Counted from the stretch's first letter, positions 737 to 21,106 are shown. The stretch: 64,000 nt of DNA from a bacterium (GCA_965219955.1 OZ244799.1:2304001-2368000); one strand, 5' to 3'. Numbers and translations: made by a program. The notes: generated by a model from the letters alone, not told the origin.

Positions 737-3168
<2,432 letters not shown>

Positions 3169-15780: not shown

Positions 15781-16098
15781 GGGGTTGTTGAAAAAGCCCG
15801 ATGCGGCGCAACCCCCCTCCTCGTCCTGCGTGGCCCGCCGCTCCGCCTCACCCTGAGTAGCGGCGAAGCCGCTTATCGAAGGGCGAAATTCGCGCCCGCT
15901 GCAGAGATGCGCCCCTCCATCCTTCGATACGGCGCTTGCGCGCCTACTCAGGATGAGGTTTTGTGGCCGCCCGCATCGGATATGTTCATCCCCGTGACTA
16001 CGCTTCGCAGGGACAGACACGGGGACCTCGGACAGGCACGGGGCCTGTCCGCTACAAACCCTCTACTTGCAGGAGCTTGGGCGGACTTTTTCAACAAC
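15781..16098. repeat. MITE-like element: GTTGTTGAAAAAG...CTTTTTCAACAAC ends enclosing CTGAGTAG..TATCGAAGG / CCTTCGATACG..CTACTCAGGATGAG palindromic repeats
   Basis: Terminal inverted repeats and internal modules recur many times in the window. Confidence 0.75.
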
Positions 16099-16357
16099 GA
16101 AGAGTGAGCGTTTGTCGTGCTGTTGATTCCACAAGCTGTCGTGGGCGCGTCTCTTGCGGCATGGCGCTTGGCGCTTTTTTCCGGATAATGACTCGATTTC
16201 GATGTTTCAAGAATCAGGCTTGCTATTCTTGAGTAAATTAGTTTAGTATTCGAAAGAATTGCGGGGCGGGCACTGCGCGCTCTGAAGTGCCGATAACTTA
16301 CGATTATCTATCCCATATCCCTTTTCAGCGAACGCTGGGAGCAAAGGAGATCAAGAA

Positions 16358-17557
16358 ATGTCGAAAACAGGACGGGACCTGCTCGAGGACGCGCGGGGCG
16401 ATGTTCCTGAGATCACGGCGGAGGAAGTGAAGTACGCCGTCGATACCGGCGCCGAGGTGGCGCTCATTGACGTGCGCGAACCGGATGAGTTCCGGGGCGG
16501 CTACCTGCCGGGTGCGGAGCACGTGAGCCGCGGATTCCTGGAACTCAAGATCGAGCAGGTCGTCCCCGACAGAAAGACGCCCATCGTCGCCTATTGCGCG
16601 GGCGGCGTGCGCTCGCTGCTCGCGGGCCAGGTGCTCCAGTCCATGGGTTATCAGAACGTGAAATCCATGGCGGGCGGTTACGGCAAGTGGAAGGATCTCG
16701 GTTTTCCCGTCCAGGTGGACAAGCAAATGAGCGCCGAGCAGCTGAACCGCTACAGCCGCCACTTCTTGCTCTCCCAGATCGGGGAAAAAGGCCAGGCCAA
16801 ACTCCTGGACGCCAAGGTCGTCCTGATAGGCGCGGGCGGGCTGGGTTCTCCCACCGGGCTGTATCTGACGGCCATGGGCGTGGGCAACATCGGCATCGTG
16901 GATATGGACGTCGTGGACATGAGCAACCTGCAGCGCCAGATCGTCCACACGAACGATCGCGTGGGCACCTCCAAGGTCGAGAGCGCGGCCGCCACCTTCA
17001 CCGCGCTGAACCCCGACGTGAACGTCATCGCGCACGAAGATAGAATCAACCGCGACAACGCGCTCGATATCCTGAAAGACTACGACGTCATCGTGAACGG
17101 GGCGGACAATTTCCCGACCCGCTACCTCGTGAACGACGCGGCTGTCTTTCTCGGAAAGCCCATCGTCGACGCCTCTATCTTCAAGTTCGAGGGCCAGGCC
17201 ACCGTCTACCATCCCGCCAAGGGCGGCCCCTGCTACCGCTGCCTCTATCCCGAACCGCCGCCGCCCGGCATGGTGCCCTCCTGCCAGGACGCGGGCGTGC
17301 TCGGCGCGCTTTGCGGCACGATGGGCTCCATCCAGGCGACGGAGACGGCCAAGCTCATCGTGGGCTTCGGCGAACCGCTTATCGGCAAACTCCTGATGTA
17401 CGACGCGCTCAAATCGCAGTTCAGGACGCTCAAGATCAGGCGCGACCCCGCCTGCCCGGTGTGCGGAGACAGCCCCTCCATCACCGAGCTCATCGACTAC
17501 GAGTTCTTCTGCGGCCTCACCGAAGCCCCCGCTACGGCCTCCGTCAACGGGGGCTGA
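16358..17557 (+). CDS. moeB: Molybdopterin-synthase adenylyltransferase MoeB/MoeZ-like (ThiF/E1 family) with N-terminal rhodanese domain
   Basis: Rhodanese IDVREPDE...YCAGGVRS; RYSRH, GAGGLGSP, SNLQRQ, CYRC, CPVC. Confidence 0.92.
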   Translation: MSKTGRDLLEDARGDVPEITAEEVKYAVDTGAEVALIDVREPDEFRGGYLPGAEHVSRGFLELKIEQVVPDRKTPIVAYCAGGVRSLLAGQVLQSMGYQNVKSMAGGYGKWKDLGFPVQVDKQMSAEQLNRYSRHFLLSQIGEKGQAKLLDAKVVLIGAGGLGSPTGLYLTAMGVGNIGIVDMDVVDMSNLQRQIVHTNDRVGTSKVESAAATFTALNPDVNVIAHEDRINRDNALDILKDYDVIVNGADNFPTRYLVNDAAVFLGKPIVDASIFKFEGQATVYHPAKGGPCYRCLYPEPPPPGMVPSCQDAGVLGALCGTMGSIQATETAKLIVGFGEPLIGKLLMYDALKSQFRTLKIRRDPACPVCGDSPSITELIDYEFFCGLTEAPATASVNGG

Positions 17558-17616
17558 TGGGAGAGAAGCGGGCAAGGAAGCGGACGTGGTGAACTAACAA
17601 AACCCAGCAAAAAGAC

Positions 17617-17653
17617 ACCCCCGGGGCATGAGCCTCGGGGGTTTTTCGCTTTT
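17617..17653 (+). terminator. Rho-independent terminator after moeB; marks the left edge of the AT-rich island
   Basis: ACCCCCGGGGC-ATGA-GCCTCGGGGGT hairpin followed by TTTTCGCTTTT. Confidence 0.8.
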
Positions 17654-17676
17654 CACATAAATTCAAAATATTTTGC

Positions 17677-17705
17677 TTGACAATAATAATTATTTGACTC
17701 ATAGT
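17677..17705 (+). promoter_or_regulatory. Putative sigma70 promoter of the retron operon
   Basis: TTGACA (17677-17682), 17-nt spacer, CATAGT; AT-rich upstream region. Confidence 0.6.
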
Positions 17706-17714
17706 TAGAAATAT

Positions 17715-18166
17715 TGCAGCAGGGTGATTCGCCCTGTATGTTCTTTGACAATCCATCTTCGAGTTTGGTGTTTAGACTTCTATCCGACACCTCTCCAAGC
17801 ATTCGGCTTTTCTGGATGCTTGTGCTTGAAATTTAGGCTATGCCTAAAATCCAGTGTGAAAATTCCGGCACTGTGATTTCCCATCTATGCAGCGAATCCA
17901 AGACCTTAGGTTTCCTATTTACAGAAGCATCGGGCATTGGGTTATCGGTCACTCACAAAATGAAAAATGTATGGAGAGGGCGTTCGCACTATTAATGAAC
18001 ATTATAGGCGAACTAGCGAATGAGGGGGTCTTACGGTAGATCCCGCCAGTTTCTAATCAGAAACAAACAAAGGACAAAGGAGGTGATTAGATGAAGAAAA
18101 TTTAAACACCAAAATCTCCGCCCGACAACTTTATCCATAGGAGAAAAAATAAATGGATAAAATCGG
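17715..18166 (+). ncRNA. Putative retron msr-msd-like structured RNA / 5' leader
   Basis: Perfect 11-bp long-range inverted repeat TTTGGTGTTTA (17764-17774) / TAAACACCAAA (18103-18113) enclosing several hairpins (17796-17822, 17832-17848, 17852-17873, 17982-18013, about 18025-18044, 18049-18064); lies upstream of a retron-type RT; ends approximate. Confidence 0.75.
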
Positions 18167-18464
18167 TAACTCGAAGGTGGGCCTTGAGAGGGCCGTAAAA
18201 GATGTTATCAAAGTCGCTTATAAGCTACTTCGGCAACAAAACGACCCTCTTATGGCGGGGACTTCAAAGGTAGTTCGTTGTCGTCTCAAGCAGCTTGAGC
18301 GTCAGTTGCAAAAAAAGCGAACGAATCCATTTCCCAAAAAAGAACTGGATAAAATCGCTAGAGAAGCAACTGACACGATAAGCTATCTTATGAAGTCCCT
18401 CATTCGTTACTTATTTTCCGCAATTTACAATTGCGAGTTATTGAAAGCATGGAAAACAAATTAG
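18153..18464 (+). CDS. Small basic hypothetical protein (103 aa), candidate retron effector
   Basis: SD AGGAG upstream, AT-rich like the island, overlaps the downstream HTH gene; no family recognised. Confidence 0.7.
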   Translation: MDKIGNSKVGLERAVKDVIKVAYKLLRQQNDPLMAGTSKVVRCRLKQLERQLQKKRTNPFPKKELDKIAREATDTISYLMKSLIRYLFSAIYNCELLKAWKTN

Positions 18465-18754
18465 GCAACACACTAAAAGTAATTAGAGTAGCTGCAGGTA
18501 TAAACCAGTCCGCTATGGCAAAAAAGCTGGAGATTACCCAAAACTATTTGTCTTTGGTCGAAAACAATCACAAAGAACCGAGCTTATCATTCTTGAAAAA
18601 GTTTGCCTCTAGTTTCGATATTCCTCTTGGGTATTTTTTATGGCTAGCCTTAGACAAGCAAGAAAATATGGAGGAAAAAGAATTGCGTGACAAGATGGAA
18701 ATACTTCTCAAAGAAATACTAATAGGCAGAAGAAGTGAAAATGTTACAGGATAA
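18449..18754 (+). CDS. XRE/Cro-C1 helix-turn-helix protein
   Basis: LGNTLKVIRVAAGINQSAMAKKLEITQNYLSLVENNHKEPSLSFLKKFA is a typical HTH_3 pattern; ATG at 18449. Confidence 0.9.
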   Translation: MENKLGNTLKVIRVAAGINQSAMAKKLEITQNYLSLVENNHKEPSLSFLKKFASSFDIPLGYFLWLALDKQENMEEKELRDKMEILLKEILIGRRSENVTG

Positions 18755-19688
18755 ACAGCCTAATCTAAAATCATCCTGGAATTTACGGACTTTGAAAGAT
18801 TTGTCACGCCTTCTAGGTGTAAAAGAAGAAATCATAAACGAGATTTCGAACTCAGCACACTTGATGTACCGGTCGCGAGAAGAACCAAAGAAATCTGGAG
18901 GAGCAAGACCAATAGATGTCCCTGGCAATAGATTAAAATGGATACAATCGACGATTAACAAGCGTTTATTGCAAAGGACCCTCGTCCATAAATCTGCAAT
19001 GGGTGGTATTCGAGGCAAACGATTAAAAGACAATGCTCAAAAACACGTTGGGAAAAATTTAGTTGCCAAATTCGATTTAGAAAATTACTTTTCGAATATT
19101 TCTCATCAGCAAGTCTACGATCGATTTTGCTCCATTGGATGCTCCCCTGATGTGGCTAGGGTTCTCACCAAACTAACAACATATAAAGGAAGAGTTCCAC
19201 AAGGAGCACCCACAAGTACTATGCTTGCGAATTTAGTAGCTGCATTTGCAAGAGACTGCAATAGTTTCAATGCAAGAATTGTTTCACTGGCTAAAAAGCG
19301 TCGTGCAACCGCTACTACTTGGGTTGACGATGTAACAATGTCAGGCCCGCGTAATATTCAAAAAGAAGCCAATACTTTCGAGAAAATTGCTAGGCAAAGT
19401 GGCTTCATACCAAACACTGATAAAAATGAATTCATAGGTAACAACCAACAACAATTCGTCACTGGAGCAGTTGTCAATCAAAAAGTAAGCGCCTCAAAAA
19501 AATACAGGAAAGCAATACGCGCGGAACTCCATCAACTCAAAGTTCATGGCCCAAGAAATATTTGTAAAGAGCCGATCAAAAAAATAAAGGAGCAGCTTCG
19601 GGGCAAAATTGCACACATAGACAACTTAAACCCCGAGCATGGTGAAAAACTTCTAAAAGAATTCAGCGCTATCGACTGGGACTCTTAA
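18735..19688 (+). CDS. Retron-type reverse transcriptase
   Basis: KKSGGARPI..LKWIQ, NAQKH (retron region X, NAxxH), DLENYF, PQGAPTS, WVDD (YxDD equivalent), VTG (retron region Y); 317 aa with no maturase, endonuclease or Cas1 domain; start may be ATG 18741. Confidence 0.93.
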   Translation: MKMLQDKQPNLKSSWNLRTLKDLSRLLGVKEEIINEISNSAHLMYRSREEPKKSGGARPIDVPGNRLKWIQSTINKRLLQRTLVHKSAMGGIRGKRLKDNAQKHVGKNLVAKFDLENYFSNISHQQVYDRFCSIGCSPDVARVLTKLTTYKGRVPQGAPTSTMLANLVAAFARDCNSFNARIVSLAKKRRATATTWVDDVTMSGPRNIQKEANTFEKIARQSGFIPNTDKNEFIGNNQQQFVTGAVVNQKVSASKKYRKAIRAELHQLKVHGPRNICKEPIKKIKEQLRGKIAHIDNLNPEHGEKLLKEFSAIDWDS

Positions 19689-19711
19689 AAGTCACCAACC
19701 ATAAGACTGAA

Positions 19712-20068
19712 CTACCCAATCTCCTCAAGCTCCGCCGCATCCATCACGGGCCGAATGGGGTAGCCGCCCCGCAGGAATTCGGCGAGAAAACCCAGGTGTT
19801 CGGCGAGGGCTGACATGTGCGCGGCGGCGTAGCGCGAGGAGAGCGCGTCGGCTTTCCGCGCCAGGGCTTCGCGGGCGTCCGCGGCGGGGTCATCCTGTGC
19901 GGCGAGGGCGTTATAGGCGTCGAGCAGGGCGCGCACGTCTTCGTGCTCCCCTGCATAGCCTGTATTCAGCGCATAGGGGCTTCGTAAGATCAAATGGACG
20001 GGGTTTTGCGTGTTCGAGGACTGATCGAGCATGCAGCGGCTGCGCCTTTGGTCGTAGTTTTCGGGCAT
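19712..20068 (-). CDS. Hypothetical protein
   Basis: SD GAGGA upstream, host-like codon usage, directly downstream of the MBL gene. Confidence 0.55.
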   Translation of the reverse strand: MPENYDQRRSRCMLDQSSNTQNPVHLILRSPYALNTGYAGEHEDVRALLDAYNALAAQDDPAADAREALARKADALSSRYAAAHMSALAEHLGFLAEFLRGGYPIRPVMDAAELEEIG

Positions 20069-20078
20069 GGCGTCCTCT

Positions 20079-20987
20079 TCAACCTCCCCTTGCGTCGTGG
20101 AGCGATATCCCCTGCTCGCCCCTCCCCTTGAACTCGTTGTAGAGCTTCATCACGGCCTGTTCGACGCGGTCGGGCTTCATCCACTCGGCATAAATCCCTA
20201 AGGGAATCTCGCGCGCGGCGCGTCTGGCGGGGATTCCCTCCTTGAAACGCTTTCGCGCCTCCCGGCGCACGAGCCGAAGGTAGCCCAGGGTTTTCTCGAG
20301 TGCACTCTTGTCCCCCGGCGGCCCGTGGCCCGGAACGACCGTCTCGACGGGGAAGGTTTTGAGTATCTTCTCCGCGACCCGTATCCACCCGCCGACGTGG
20401 GCGTCGAAGGTGGCGGGCGTGACGTAGTGAAAGCAGATGTCACCGGTGAAGAGAACACGCTCTTCGGGCAGATAGACGACCGTGTCGCCTTTCGAATGCG
20501 CGTGGCCCAGGTGGTGGAGTTCCACGACGCGCTTGCCCAGGCGGAGCGTCATGCCCCCCTCGTAGATGACGTCGGGAAAGCGCTGTTTGAGCCTTTTGAG
20601 TTCCGAGGCATATTCGGGGTTCACGCCCCGGTAGTGCGCGAGGTCGAGGCCCGTTTCCACCATCCGCTCGCGCATGTAGCGGTGTGCGATGACGGGGATA
20701 TCGTTATCGAACCAGATGAGGCCCAAGGTGTGATCCGCATGGTGGTGGGTGCAGACGACCTTGCGCACCGGCTTTCTGGTCGCTTTGAGGATGGCCTCCT
20801 GAAAGGCCTGCGTCATGGGGCGCACGTAGAGCGCGTCGACGACGAGCGCCTCATCGTCCCCCACGATGAGGCCTGCGTTCGAGACGTTCAGCCCGCCCGC
20901 CTGGATGTAGGCGTAGACGCCCGGGGCCATGCGCTGAAGCCCCGTCTTCCAGCTTGTGGGCACTTTCCGGGTTCCAGCCATGCGCAC
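20079..20987 (-). CDS. MBL-fold metallo-hydrolase (cyclase-like)
   Basis: SNAGLI, THHHADHTLG, AHSKGD, FTGD, VPGHG. Confidence 0.92.
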   Translation of the reverse strand: MRMAGTRKVPTSWKTGLQRMAPGVYAYIQAGGLNVSNAGLIVGDDEALVVDALYVRPMTQAFQEAILKATRKPVRKVVCTHHHADHTLGLIWFDNDIPVIAHRYMRERMVETGLDLAHYRGVNPEYASELKRLKQRFPDVIYEGGMTLRLGKRVVELHHLGHAHSKGDTVVYLPEERVLFTGDICFHYVTPATFDAHVGGWIRVAEKILKTFPVETVVPGHGPPGDKSALEKTLGYLRLVRREARKRFKEGIPARRAAREIPLGIYAEWMKPDRVEQAVMKLYNEFKGRGEQGISLHDARGG

Positions 20988-21106
20988 CTCCTTTTCAGGC
21001 GCATCATTCTACACGATGGGAGCGATTGACCGCACGCCGCCTTACGGGCGACATTGGCCCCGAATTCAAAGCCGGGGTTTCAGCCGTTCACGCAAAGGGG
21101 GAGCAA

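Follow-up and report, generated by a model that had tools for sequence, protein, structure and literature searches.

In canonical retrons such as Retron-Eco1 (Ec86), the a1/a2 inverted repeats flank a structured RNA upstream of the reverse transcriptase (RT) gene, and the msDNA acts as the antitoxin. To our knowledge, no ribosome site or coding sequence lies within the a1/a2 region of the canonical retrons. The locus described here has in common with Eco1/Ec86 the inverted repeats placed around a structured RNA 5' of a retron RT; unlike in that system, a Shine-Dalgarno (SD)-like site and coding sequence are predicted to take part in the a1/a2 region.

The closest described systems are Retron-Vpa2 and Retron-Sen3. 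According to the main text of the Vpa2 preprint (Zhang et al., 10.1101/2025.10.22.683967), a hybrid RNA (hyRNA) holds both the RT template and the coding sequence of a small protein, SP; the SP ribosome site and start codon lie within stem-loops, and the fold of the RNA represses SP translation. The same text reports that msDNA is undetectable before the trigger and is required for SP translation. Conserved 7-nt direct repeats, located in an msd loop and in the riboregulator loop, are proposed there as mediators, and the 5' 23 nt of the msDNA, which are needed for derepression, contain such a repeat; the ribosome site and the repeats are treated as separate features. RT, HTH protein and RNA are described as forming a complex, and the HTH protein as repressing reverse transcription. 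For Retron-Sen3 and its cl2075 ncRNA, the preprint text (Garcia-Rodriguez et al., 10.64898/2026.04.27.721009) describes an SP ribosome site sequestered in the basal stem, a 5' inverted repeat just after a conserved stem-loop, and long-range pairing around SP.

The window that we analysed is a stretch of 64,000 nt of bacterial DNA (GCA_965219955.1 OZ244799.1:2304001-2368000), and all positions are counted from its first letter. Within DNA of about 63% GC, it contains a low-GC island of 2.1 kb (about 40% GC) that houses an SP-HTH-RT operon (Table 1). The SP gene lies upstream of the HTH gene, the end of the HTH ORF (18754) overlaps the start of the RT ORF (18735), and the leader is structured, with a 5' stem-loop, terminal inverted repeats and a sequestered SP start; these features and this gene order are those of the Type VI retrons in the classification of Mestre et al. 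2020. An earlier reading made before any comparison (hereafter, the sequence-only reading) had recognized a retron at this locus, and the PADLOC profiles HTH_VI (2e-25) and RT_VI (6.5e-66, 220.5 bits) bear this out, with the RT scoring slightly higher against RT_III-A (2.3e-68, 228.8 bits). Judged from the HTH_VI and RT_VI scores and from the order SP-HTH-RT, the locus is probably a Type VI retron, a kind of anti-phage system. SP had no match in Pfam or PADLOC.

Between a promoter-like site and SP, about 440 nt of structured leader RNA hold no long ORF. An Rfam search of positions 16000-21000 in E-value mode gave chance-level matches only, and no retron or leader family. The promoter boxes, TTGAC.TATAGTTAGA, are kept in related loci (groups B and C, defined below). 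The -35 region at 17669-17684 (TATTTTGCTTGACAAT) and the a1 segment at 17737-17752 (TATGTTCTTTGACAAT) form a 16-nt direct repeat with 81% identity, and two TTGAC boxes in the promoter are also present in related loci; the repeat and the boxes could be HTH operators, or chance. Among 22 other genomes of the same genus, the leader DNA is found in one (G020, the place of the related locus L001) and is absent from 21, and the retron looks like a sporadic, horizontally acquired cassette. The island is inserted directly 3' of the terminator of the ThiF/rhodanese gene, and in L001 (G020) the retron lies behind the same ThiF/rhodanese gene.

Table 1. Features of the retron locus, with positions in the 64,000-nt window. 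The last four rows give the strands of the P2 extension (3' strand / 5' strand) in the window and in related loci.
Feature	Position	Strand	Description
Low-GC island	17600-19700		between ThiF/rhodanese gene and metallo-beta-lactamase-fold gene
Promoter-like site	17677..17705	+	sigma-70-like; TTGACA, 17-nt spacer, CATAGT; 10/12 matches
5' stem-loop (helix 1)	17719..17737	+	GCAGGGUGAUUCGCCCUGU; 9/9 loci; one compensatory pair (G-C to A-U, group C); 98.6% of cells paired
Candidate a1 arm	17740..17748	+	GUUCUUUGA, UCUUUGA invariant; pairs with 18068-18075
P1, 5' strand	17753..17765	+	UUCGAG-like; pairs with SP codons 6-10 (18168-18180); inverted repeat of 13 nt, 92%
P2, 5' strand	17766..17796	+	includes anti-SD CACCUCU (17788-17794)
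Presumed msr-msd core	17797..18067	+	covarying hairpins H1-H3, variable long stem, hairpin A (18025-18044), hairpin B (18049-18064)
Candidate a2 arm	18068..18075	+	CAAAGGAC; directly upstream of SD1
SD1	18076..18087	+	AAAGGAGGUGAU; perfect 12-nt complement of host 16S rRNA 3' end; core AGGAGGUGA
Four-codon ORF (MKKI, stop)	18091..18105	+	lineage-specific; 3' strand of P2 extension
Local hairpin	18130..18161	+	perfect 9-bp stem pairing the SP start codon (18153-18155); weak SP ribosome site AGGAGA (18139-18144) in loop
SP	18153..18464	+	103 aa; small protein of the SP-HTH-RT operon
HTH protein, Cro/C1 type	18449..18754	+	PADLOC HTH_VI 2.1e-25; Pfam HTH_3 1.1e-11
Retron RT	18735..19688	+	PADLOC RT profiles
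P2 extension, window			GAUGAAG / CUUC-AUC, then UUUAAACAC / GUGUUUAGA
P2 extension, L001			CAGAUG / CAUCUG
P2 extension, group B			CCUG / CAGG
P2 extension, L083			AAAAGUAC / GUGUUUUU

The motif at the center of this study is the 9-mer AAGGAGGTG at 18077-18085, followed by the 5-nt spacer ATTAG and by ATG AAG AAA ATT TAA at 18091-18105; the sequence-only reading had reported exactly this arrangement, and direct inspection of the window confirmed it. The host 16S rRNA terminates in GAUCACCUCCUUU, to which positions 18076-18087 are complementary in 12 of 12 bases, and we refer to this extended motif as SD1. Two copies of the 9-mer are present in the window against 0.30 expected, a number reached by 3 of 100 shuffles; the second copy (20985-20993, minus strand) is located directly upstream of the start of the metallo-beta-lactamase-fold ORF. 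The looser pattern GGAGG-N4-9-ATG is as frequent in the window as chance predicts (16 found, 15.3 expected), so the pattern by itself is weak evidence and the case has to be made from the relatives.

At E <= 1e-20, the databases contain 180 relatives of the RT. An alignment of 30 RT relatives was used for the scans, which returned 80 genome loci and 80 metagenome loci, and 11 loci had an RT identity of at least 45%. L086 and L087 were left out because their RT lies at a contig edge, without DNA upstream, and L082 because it does not differ from L003 over 1800-3000. The nine distinct loci compared are the window and L001, group B (L002, L003, L081, L084) and group C (L004, L083, L085). RT identity to the window is 84% for L001 and goes down to 45-50% within the clade. 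SP, HTH and RT are present in all eight relatives. A tblastn search with SP gave nine locus ids, including L161 (the window), L162 (the place of L001) and L082 (the same as L003), and these represent five distinct loci beyond the window; SP-like ORFs with the same KSLIR motif are also present in L004 and L085.

A covariance model of the 3' block (R1), run on 160 loci, found seven training loci besides the window, the duplicate L082, and L001 (E 7.5e-5); outside the clade, these 160 loci gave two chance-level matches only (E about 0.8). A 22-nt degenerate pattern had no match in viral contigs. The tblastn search of the RT against plasmids returned 56 records, all below 60% identity (27-35% among the 30 listed), with no Vibrio record among the matches listed, and the supplement of the retron census contains no ncRNA sequences for its Type VI entries. 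Contigs from public runs yielded two further near-identical variants, about 93-95% identical to the window, and a contig of run X5 that covers the HTH and RT part only. The metatranscriptome contig X8 (2130 nt, depth 43.8) extends from 17769 through the RT gene and belongs to a variant about 93% identical to the window; DNA run X7, from the same sample, has a depth of 3.8-6.1. The X8 contig is only a hint of expression, and contigs prove neither transcription nor a transcript end (here, 17769).

The comparison of the nine loci separates SD1 from the ORF that follows it. The core AGGAGGUGA is invariant in 9/9 loci, as is AGGAGGTGA, which is the longest invariant run in a leader block with a mean column identity of 62-73%, and this invariance of AGGAGGTGA among related loci lifts the motif above chance. 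The 13-nt linker 5' of SD1 is also nearly invariant. An ATG followed by four codons is found in two of the nine loci only, the window (MKKI) and L001 (ATG AAA ATA ACT TAA, MKIT); at the same place, group B has CTG (4/4) and L004 TTG, and a start codon is missing from L083 and L085. The frames after the motif differ among loci and none is shared, the CTG of L081 being in frame with SP and that of L002 out of frame. In the environmental variants (X6, X7, X8), T18101C (ATT to ACT, as in L001) is the sole change within 18077-18105 among the changes listed. The sequence-only reading had proposed looking among homologues for a conserved SD, ATG and short stop, and the outcome is divided: the SD is kept in 9/9 loci, and the ATG with its short stop in 2/9.

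Start, frame and length, which a leader peptide should conserve among homologues, are therefore not conserved here, and the micro-ORF does not stand as a conserved feature. The extension of helix P2 (described below) changes in sequence between lineages yet stays paired, which identifies the ATG and the micro-ORF codons as the 3' strand of a covarying helix. Most likely, the ATG and the four codons are helix-extension nucleotides that read as an ORF by accident in the window lineage. We also considered the micro-ORF as a relic copy of the SP start (ATG-A/G..-AAA-AT) and rejected this idea, the resemblance being too weak by eye.

The leader (17740-18200) folds to -151 kcal/mol, compared to a shuffle mean of -114 (z = -6.8), and none of 100 shuffles folds as well. 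From the nine leaders, RNAalifold recovered the 5' stem-loop, six covarying hairpins and two long-range helices, P1 and P2, both of which were found unprompted. Pairs were counted on the consensus structure with a1:a2 added as a crossing helix: 93.1% of the cells are paired, against 42-52% when partners are slid, and 32 pairs show a compensatory change. The value is reached by 0 of 500 shuffles, a statistic that is inflated by the relatedness of the loci, which form three tight groups only. P1 has compensatory changes in six pairs according to RNAalifold and in 7 of 10 pairs in the pair count.

In the P2 core, 98.4% of the cells are paired, and the changes are one-sided only, because SD1 never varies; the evidence for the pairing of this core is thus its energy and the covarying extension. 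The P2 5' strand of the window and of L001 is misaligned in alignment A2, and the helix-4 counts flatter both, for which reason P2 was verified in each sequence separately. The 5' strand of every one of the nine loci pairs with SD1 and the extension downstream of it, with energies of -17.8 to -25.9 kcal/mol. The anti-SD partner of SD1 varies among loci (CACCUCU, CUCACCCCCC with an A-C mismatch, UCACCUCC and CACCUUCC), and the fact that SD1 is fixed while the strand facing it varies suggests that SD1 has a second partner. All nine full-length folds have SD1 paired, with a mean unpaired probability of 0.00-0.20. In the window this value is 0.02, and two earlier statements are borne out by the fold: the SD, said to be complementary to CACCTC at 17788-17793, is predicted to pair with CACCUC(U), and its burial in a stem of the retron RNA is seen as a long-range stem.

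The sequence-only reading had taken the stop codon of the micro-ORF as the start of the a2 arm, its a1/a2 corresponding to 17761-17779 with 18098-18116. An inverted repeat of 19 nt, 84% complementary, does join these segments and spans the stop codon; its arm begins at 18098, and the statement about the stop is therefore roughly right. This repeat, however, is a lineage-specific extension; a better candidate for the priming a1:a2 is 17740-17748 with 18068-18075. Their predicted duplex is found in 9/9 loci, with 8-10 paired bases and energies of -10.4 to -18.2 kcal/mol. In the pair count (helix 2), 98.7% of the cells are paired, with one compensatory pair, and substitutions are tolerated through G-U pairs. 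L001 has a 14-nt linker deletion and a duplex rebuilt from other bases, and in the X6 variant the change G18073A turns a G-U pair of a1:a2 into A-U. SD1 begins 2-3 nt after a2, and a1:a2 crosses P1 as well as P2. We call the fold with P1 and P2 the clamp fold; compared with it, a structure in which a1:a2 is forced is less stable by 6.6-18.9 kcal/mol. Since a2 and SD1 are so close to each other, the two folds are expected to be mutually exclusive.

Two other observations concern the presumed msr-msd core. The 75 nt at 17857-17931, within the variable long stem, are swapped for a diverged segment of the same length in the X7/X8 variants, which matches the "non-conserved variable region" mentioned in the text of the Sen3 preprint (10.64898/2026.04.27.721009). 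A G-rich motif is retained in the loop of hairpin A (18024-18047), with the form YGGGGWG for groups B and C and ACGGUAG for the window, and in group B similar GGGGUGA or GGAGGUGA copies lie between SD1 and the SP ribosome site; the hairpin A motif may correspond to the 7-nt direct repeats that have been published.

Seven of the nine loci have another AGGAGGU copy as their true SP ribosome site, and SD1 precedes the SP start by 59-89 nt. Weak SP sites are present in the window (AGGAGA) and in L001 (AGGAA), exactly the two loci with the ATG, a coincidence that would fit a functional micro-ORF as well as drift. In the fold of the window, the unpaired probability is 0.96 for the SP ribosome site and 0.05 for the SP AUG. 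An alternation of the 5' strand between SD1 and the true SP ribosome site was considered as the switch mechanism and discarded, the pairing being no better than that of shuffled sequence in 6/9 loci. L081 has a third copy of the site: at 590-665 of this locus, three GGAGGUGA copies lie within 60 nt upstream of the SP start, and the frame from the first of them is open into SP, making an N-terminally extended SP possible in this locus only.

More distant Type VI loci place SD1 in context. L088, whose RT is 32% identical, has a 5' stem-loop, an a1-like arm, an anti-SD, an a2-like arm and an SD in the same layout, and there the SD after a2 is the real SP ribosome site, paired with the 5' anti-SD. 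The position of SD1 is thus one that a real SP ribosome site occupies elsewhere, in agreement with the description of Sen3. L089 combines a TTCACCTCCACC/GGTGGAGGTGAA helix with a distinct SP site. At 1234-1256 of L089, ATG TAA G ATG comes after the SP ribosome site AAGGAGGTGAG, and this start-stop pair directly before the SP start is another minimal ORF beside a retron SD.

Compared with Vpa2 as its preprint text describes it, and with our locus known from its sequence, the two systems share the SP-HTH-RT operon, a single structured transcript with the RT template and the SP coding sequence, a sequestered SP ribosome site or start, long-range inverted repeats between the leader and the SP region, and direct repeats in the leader. 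Here, unlike in Vpa2, the closing helix contains a second, invariant SD copy, separate from the SP ribosome site; SP has 103 aa, and the leader plus SP measure about 750 nt, against about 470 nt in Vpa2. With Sen3, again by description, the locus shares closure of the ncRNA by inverted repeats, sequestration of a ribosome site at or within the basal stem, long-range pairing to the SP region and predicted alternative conformations, and the position of a1, directly behind the 5' stem-loop, agrees with that of the 5' inverted repeat in Sen3. The sequestered site of Sen3, however, is the real SP site, whereas here it is a pseudo-site (with the four-codon ORF in the window) and the real site is downstream; the distal repeat of Sen3 (IR2) comes after the SP stop, whereas the distal pairing here is with SP codons 6-10; and the SP family differs.

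The sequence-only reading had also not recognized the arrangement as a described retron feature. This needs qualification: a sequestered SP ribosome site, and reverse transcription tied to SP translation, are described in the texts of both preprints, and the known part of our observations is the Type VI hybrid RNA with a sequestered ribosome site. On the other side, the texts of the Vpa2 and Sen3 preprints contain none of the terms "Shine", "uORF" and "leader peptide", and the Sen3 text does not contain "anti-SD". Literature searches on retrons with Shine-Dalgarno gave engineering papers among the matches listed, and those on retron hyRNA gave the Vpa2 preprint only. What is new here, with no prior description found in the two preprint texts and the literature searched, is a separate invariant extended SD beside a probable a2, with two crossing conserved helices.

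From the observed anatomy, conservation, covariation and fold energies, we consider it reasonably probable that SD1 is a sequestered pseudo-ribosome site within a translational clamp of the Type VI hybrid RNA, that the ATG and codons behind it are incidental, and that the RNA toggles between folds. SD1 would be the 3' strand of P2, under sequence selection and held shut by the 5' anti-SD strand, and P1 together with P2 would clamp the arm that bears the real SP ribosome site and start codon. As the clamp crosses the a1:a2 helix, it probably excludes it. In the closed state, SD1 would be hidden, a1 would be unpaired with a2, preventing priming, and the SP start would be occluded; in the open state, a1:a2 would be formed, and SD1 and the SP initiation region would be exposed. 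Such an alternation in vivo, which we infer from the two folds, would tie priming to SP translation, and would account for the link between msDNA production and SP translation that the Vpa2 preprint text reports.

Once exposed, SD1 may bind 30S subunits as a standby or decoy site, as its strict complementarity to the 16S rRNA suggests. A 30S subunit on SD1 would also overlap a2, which makes a competition between ribosome entry and priming structurally reasonable. The competition of ribosome entry with a1/a2 pairing and RT priming put forward in the sequence-only reading is therefore structurally plausible, the SD lying beside the helices expected to position priming, and that reading's interpretation is, overall, partly supported. 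A comparable case is tisB/IstR-1, a toxin mRNA with a structured true start in which an upstream single-strand or SD-like entry site is kept closed. Unlike in tisB/IstR-1, the closing strand here is in cis, the element adjoins the helix that would prime reverse transcription, and there is no known antisense RNA. A bolder version, which we regard as rather doubtful, is that this super-SD (9-12 nt complementary to 16S rRNA, 2-3 nt after a2) is a ribosome-operated toggle of the clamp fold against the priming fold, and in the window lineage is now a translated uORF replacing the decayed SP site. In that version, a 30S subunit on SD1, or the disappearance of the 5' strand once reverse transcription and RNase H have acted, would keep the clamp open.

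Other explanations have to be weighed against the sequestered pseudo-site. For the window lineage, SD1 and the AUG may form a real start, the translation of four codons unzipping the stem or feeding the weak SP start 47 nt downstream and thereby linking translation to retron activation. The perfect SD with its 5-nt spacer and AUG, and the SP AUG of the window locked in a 9-bp hairpin, argue for this possibility, as do the micro-ORF length and TAA stop, which are kept in L001, with ATT to ACT as the only difference among the changes listed in X6, X7 and X8. In the same direction, the two loci with the ATG are the two with a decayed SP site (AGGAGA and AGGAA, against AGGAGGU in the other seven), but this co-occurrence is one evolutionary event and cannot be weighed statistically. 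The ATG is missing in 7/9 loci, where no common frame exists, the peptide differs (MKKI and MKIT), and the SD and AUG are almost fully paired, with an unpaired probability of about 0.02. In addition, the 47 nt from the stop to the SP start are long for direct translational coupling. Taking both sides together, we judge a functional micro-ORF to be unlikely.

The invariance of SD1 could instead reflect recognition by the RT or HTH protein, or a role of its DNA copy. Conservation for the reverse transcription machinery would make SD1 an RT or HTH recognition or positioning element next to a2, its likeness to an SD being inherited from an ancestral SP site. It does abut a2, behind a nearly invariant linker of 13 nt; L088 has its real SP site at the same position, of which SD1 may be a relic; and the Vpa2 preprint text (10.1101/2025.10.22.683967) describes an RT-HTH-RNA complex in which the HTH protein represses reverse transcription. 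A relic kept for pairing or protein contact, however, need not retain 9-12 nt of exact 16S complementarity while its partner drifts. We consider this explanation improbable. We give even less credence to SD1 as part of the reverse-transcribed template, with an anti-SD-like 5' end of the msDNA as the active species and SD1 as the 7-nt direct repeat of Zhang et al. SD1 and the SP ribosome site do form a direct repeat in 7/9 loci, the 5' 23 nt of the Vpa2 msDNA that are needed for derepression hold such a repeat according to the same preprint text, and SD1 would be inside the template if priming used the outer extension helix. Against this, SD1 is outside the template if a1:a2 is 17740-48 with 18068-75, the effect of a DNA copy of SD1 would be to cover the SP ribosome site, not to free it, SD1 is retained in the window and in L001 although the repeat is lost in both, and the Vpa2 text (10.1101/2025.10.22.683967) keeps the ribosome site and the repeats apart. 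Finally, a chance match of SD, ATG and stop in an AT-rich intergenic region would agree with the GGAGG-N4-9-ATG count given above, but the 9-mer is invariant in nine loci with RT identities down to 45-50%, inside a covarying RNA; this conservation already contradicts chance, which we consider a negligible explanation.

Type VI is the one retron type in which reverse-transcribed DNA reportedly turns toxin translation on, not off, and how the RNA turns it on is presented as an open point in the Vpa2 preprint text (10.1101/2025.10.22.683967). The clade described here is a natural experiment on this question, with an invariant extended SD that is not that of the toxin, located beside a probable priming helix, and with two crossing, well-supported helices. 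These features suggest mutants that address a possible competition of ribosome access, RT priming and toxin translation for shared nucleotides. If the ribosome-operated toggle were true, translation state, msDNA synthesis and toxin translation would be coupled on a single RNA. If the micro-ORF is not functional, the locus would represent a well-documented variant of a known riboregulator; if it is functional in the window lineage, it would be a first case of an upstream ORF within a retron RNA.
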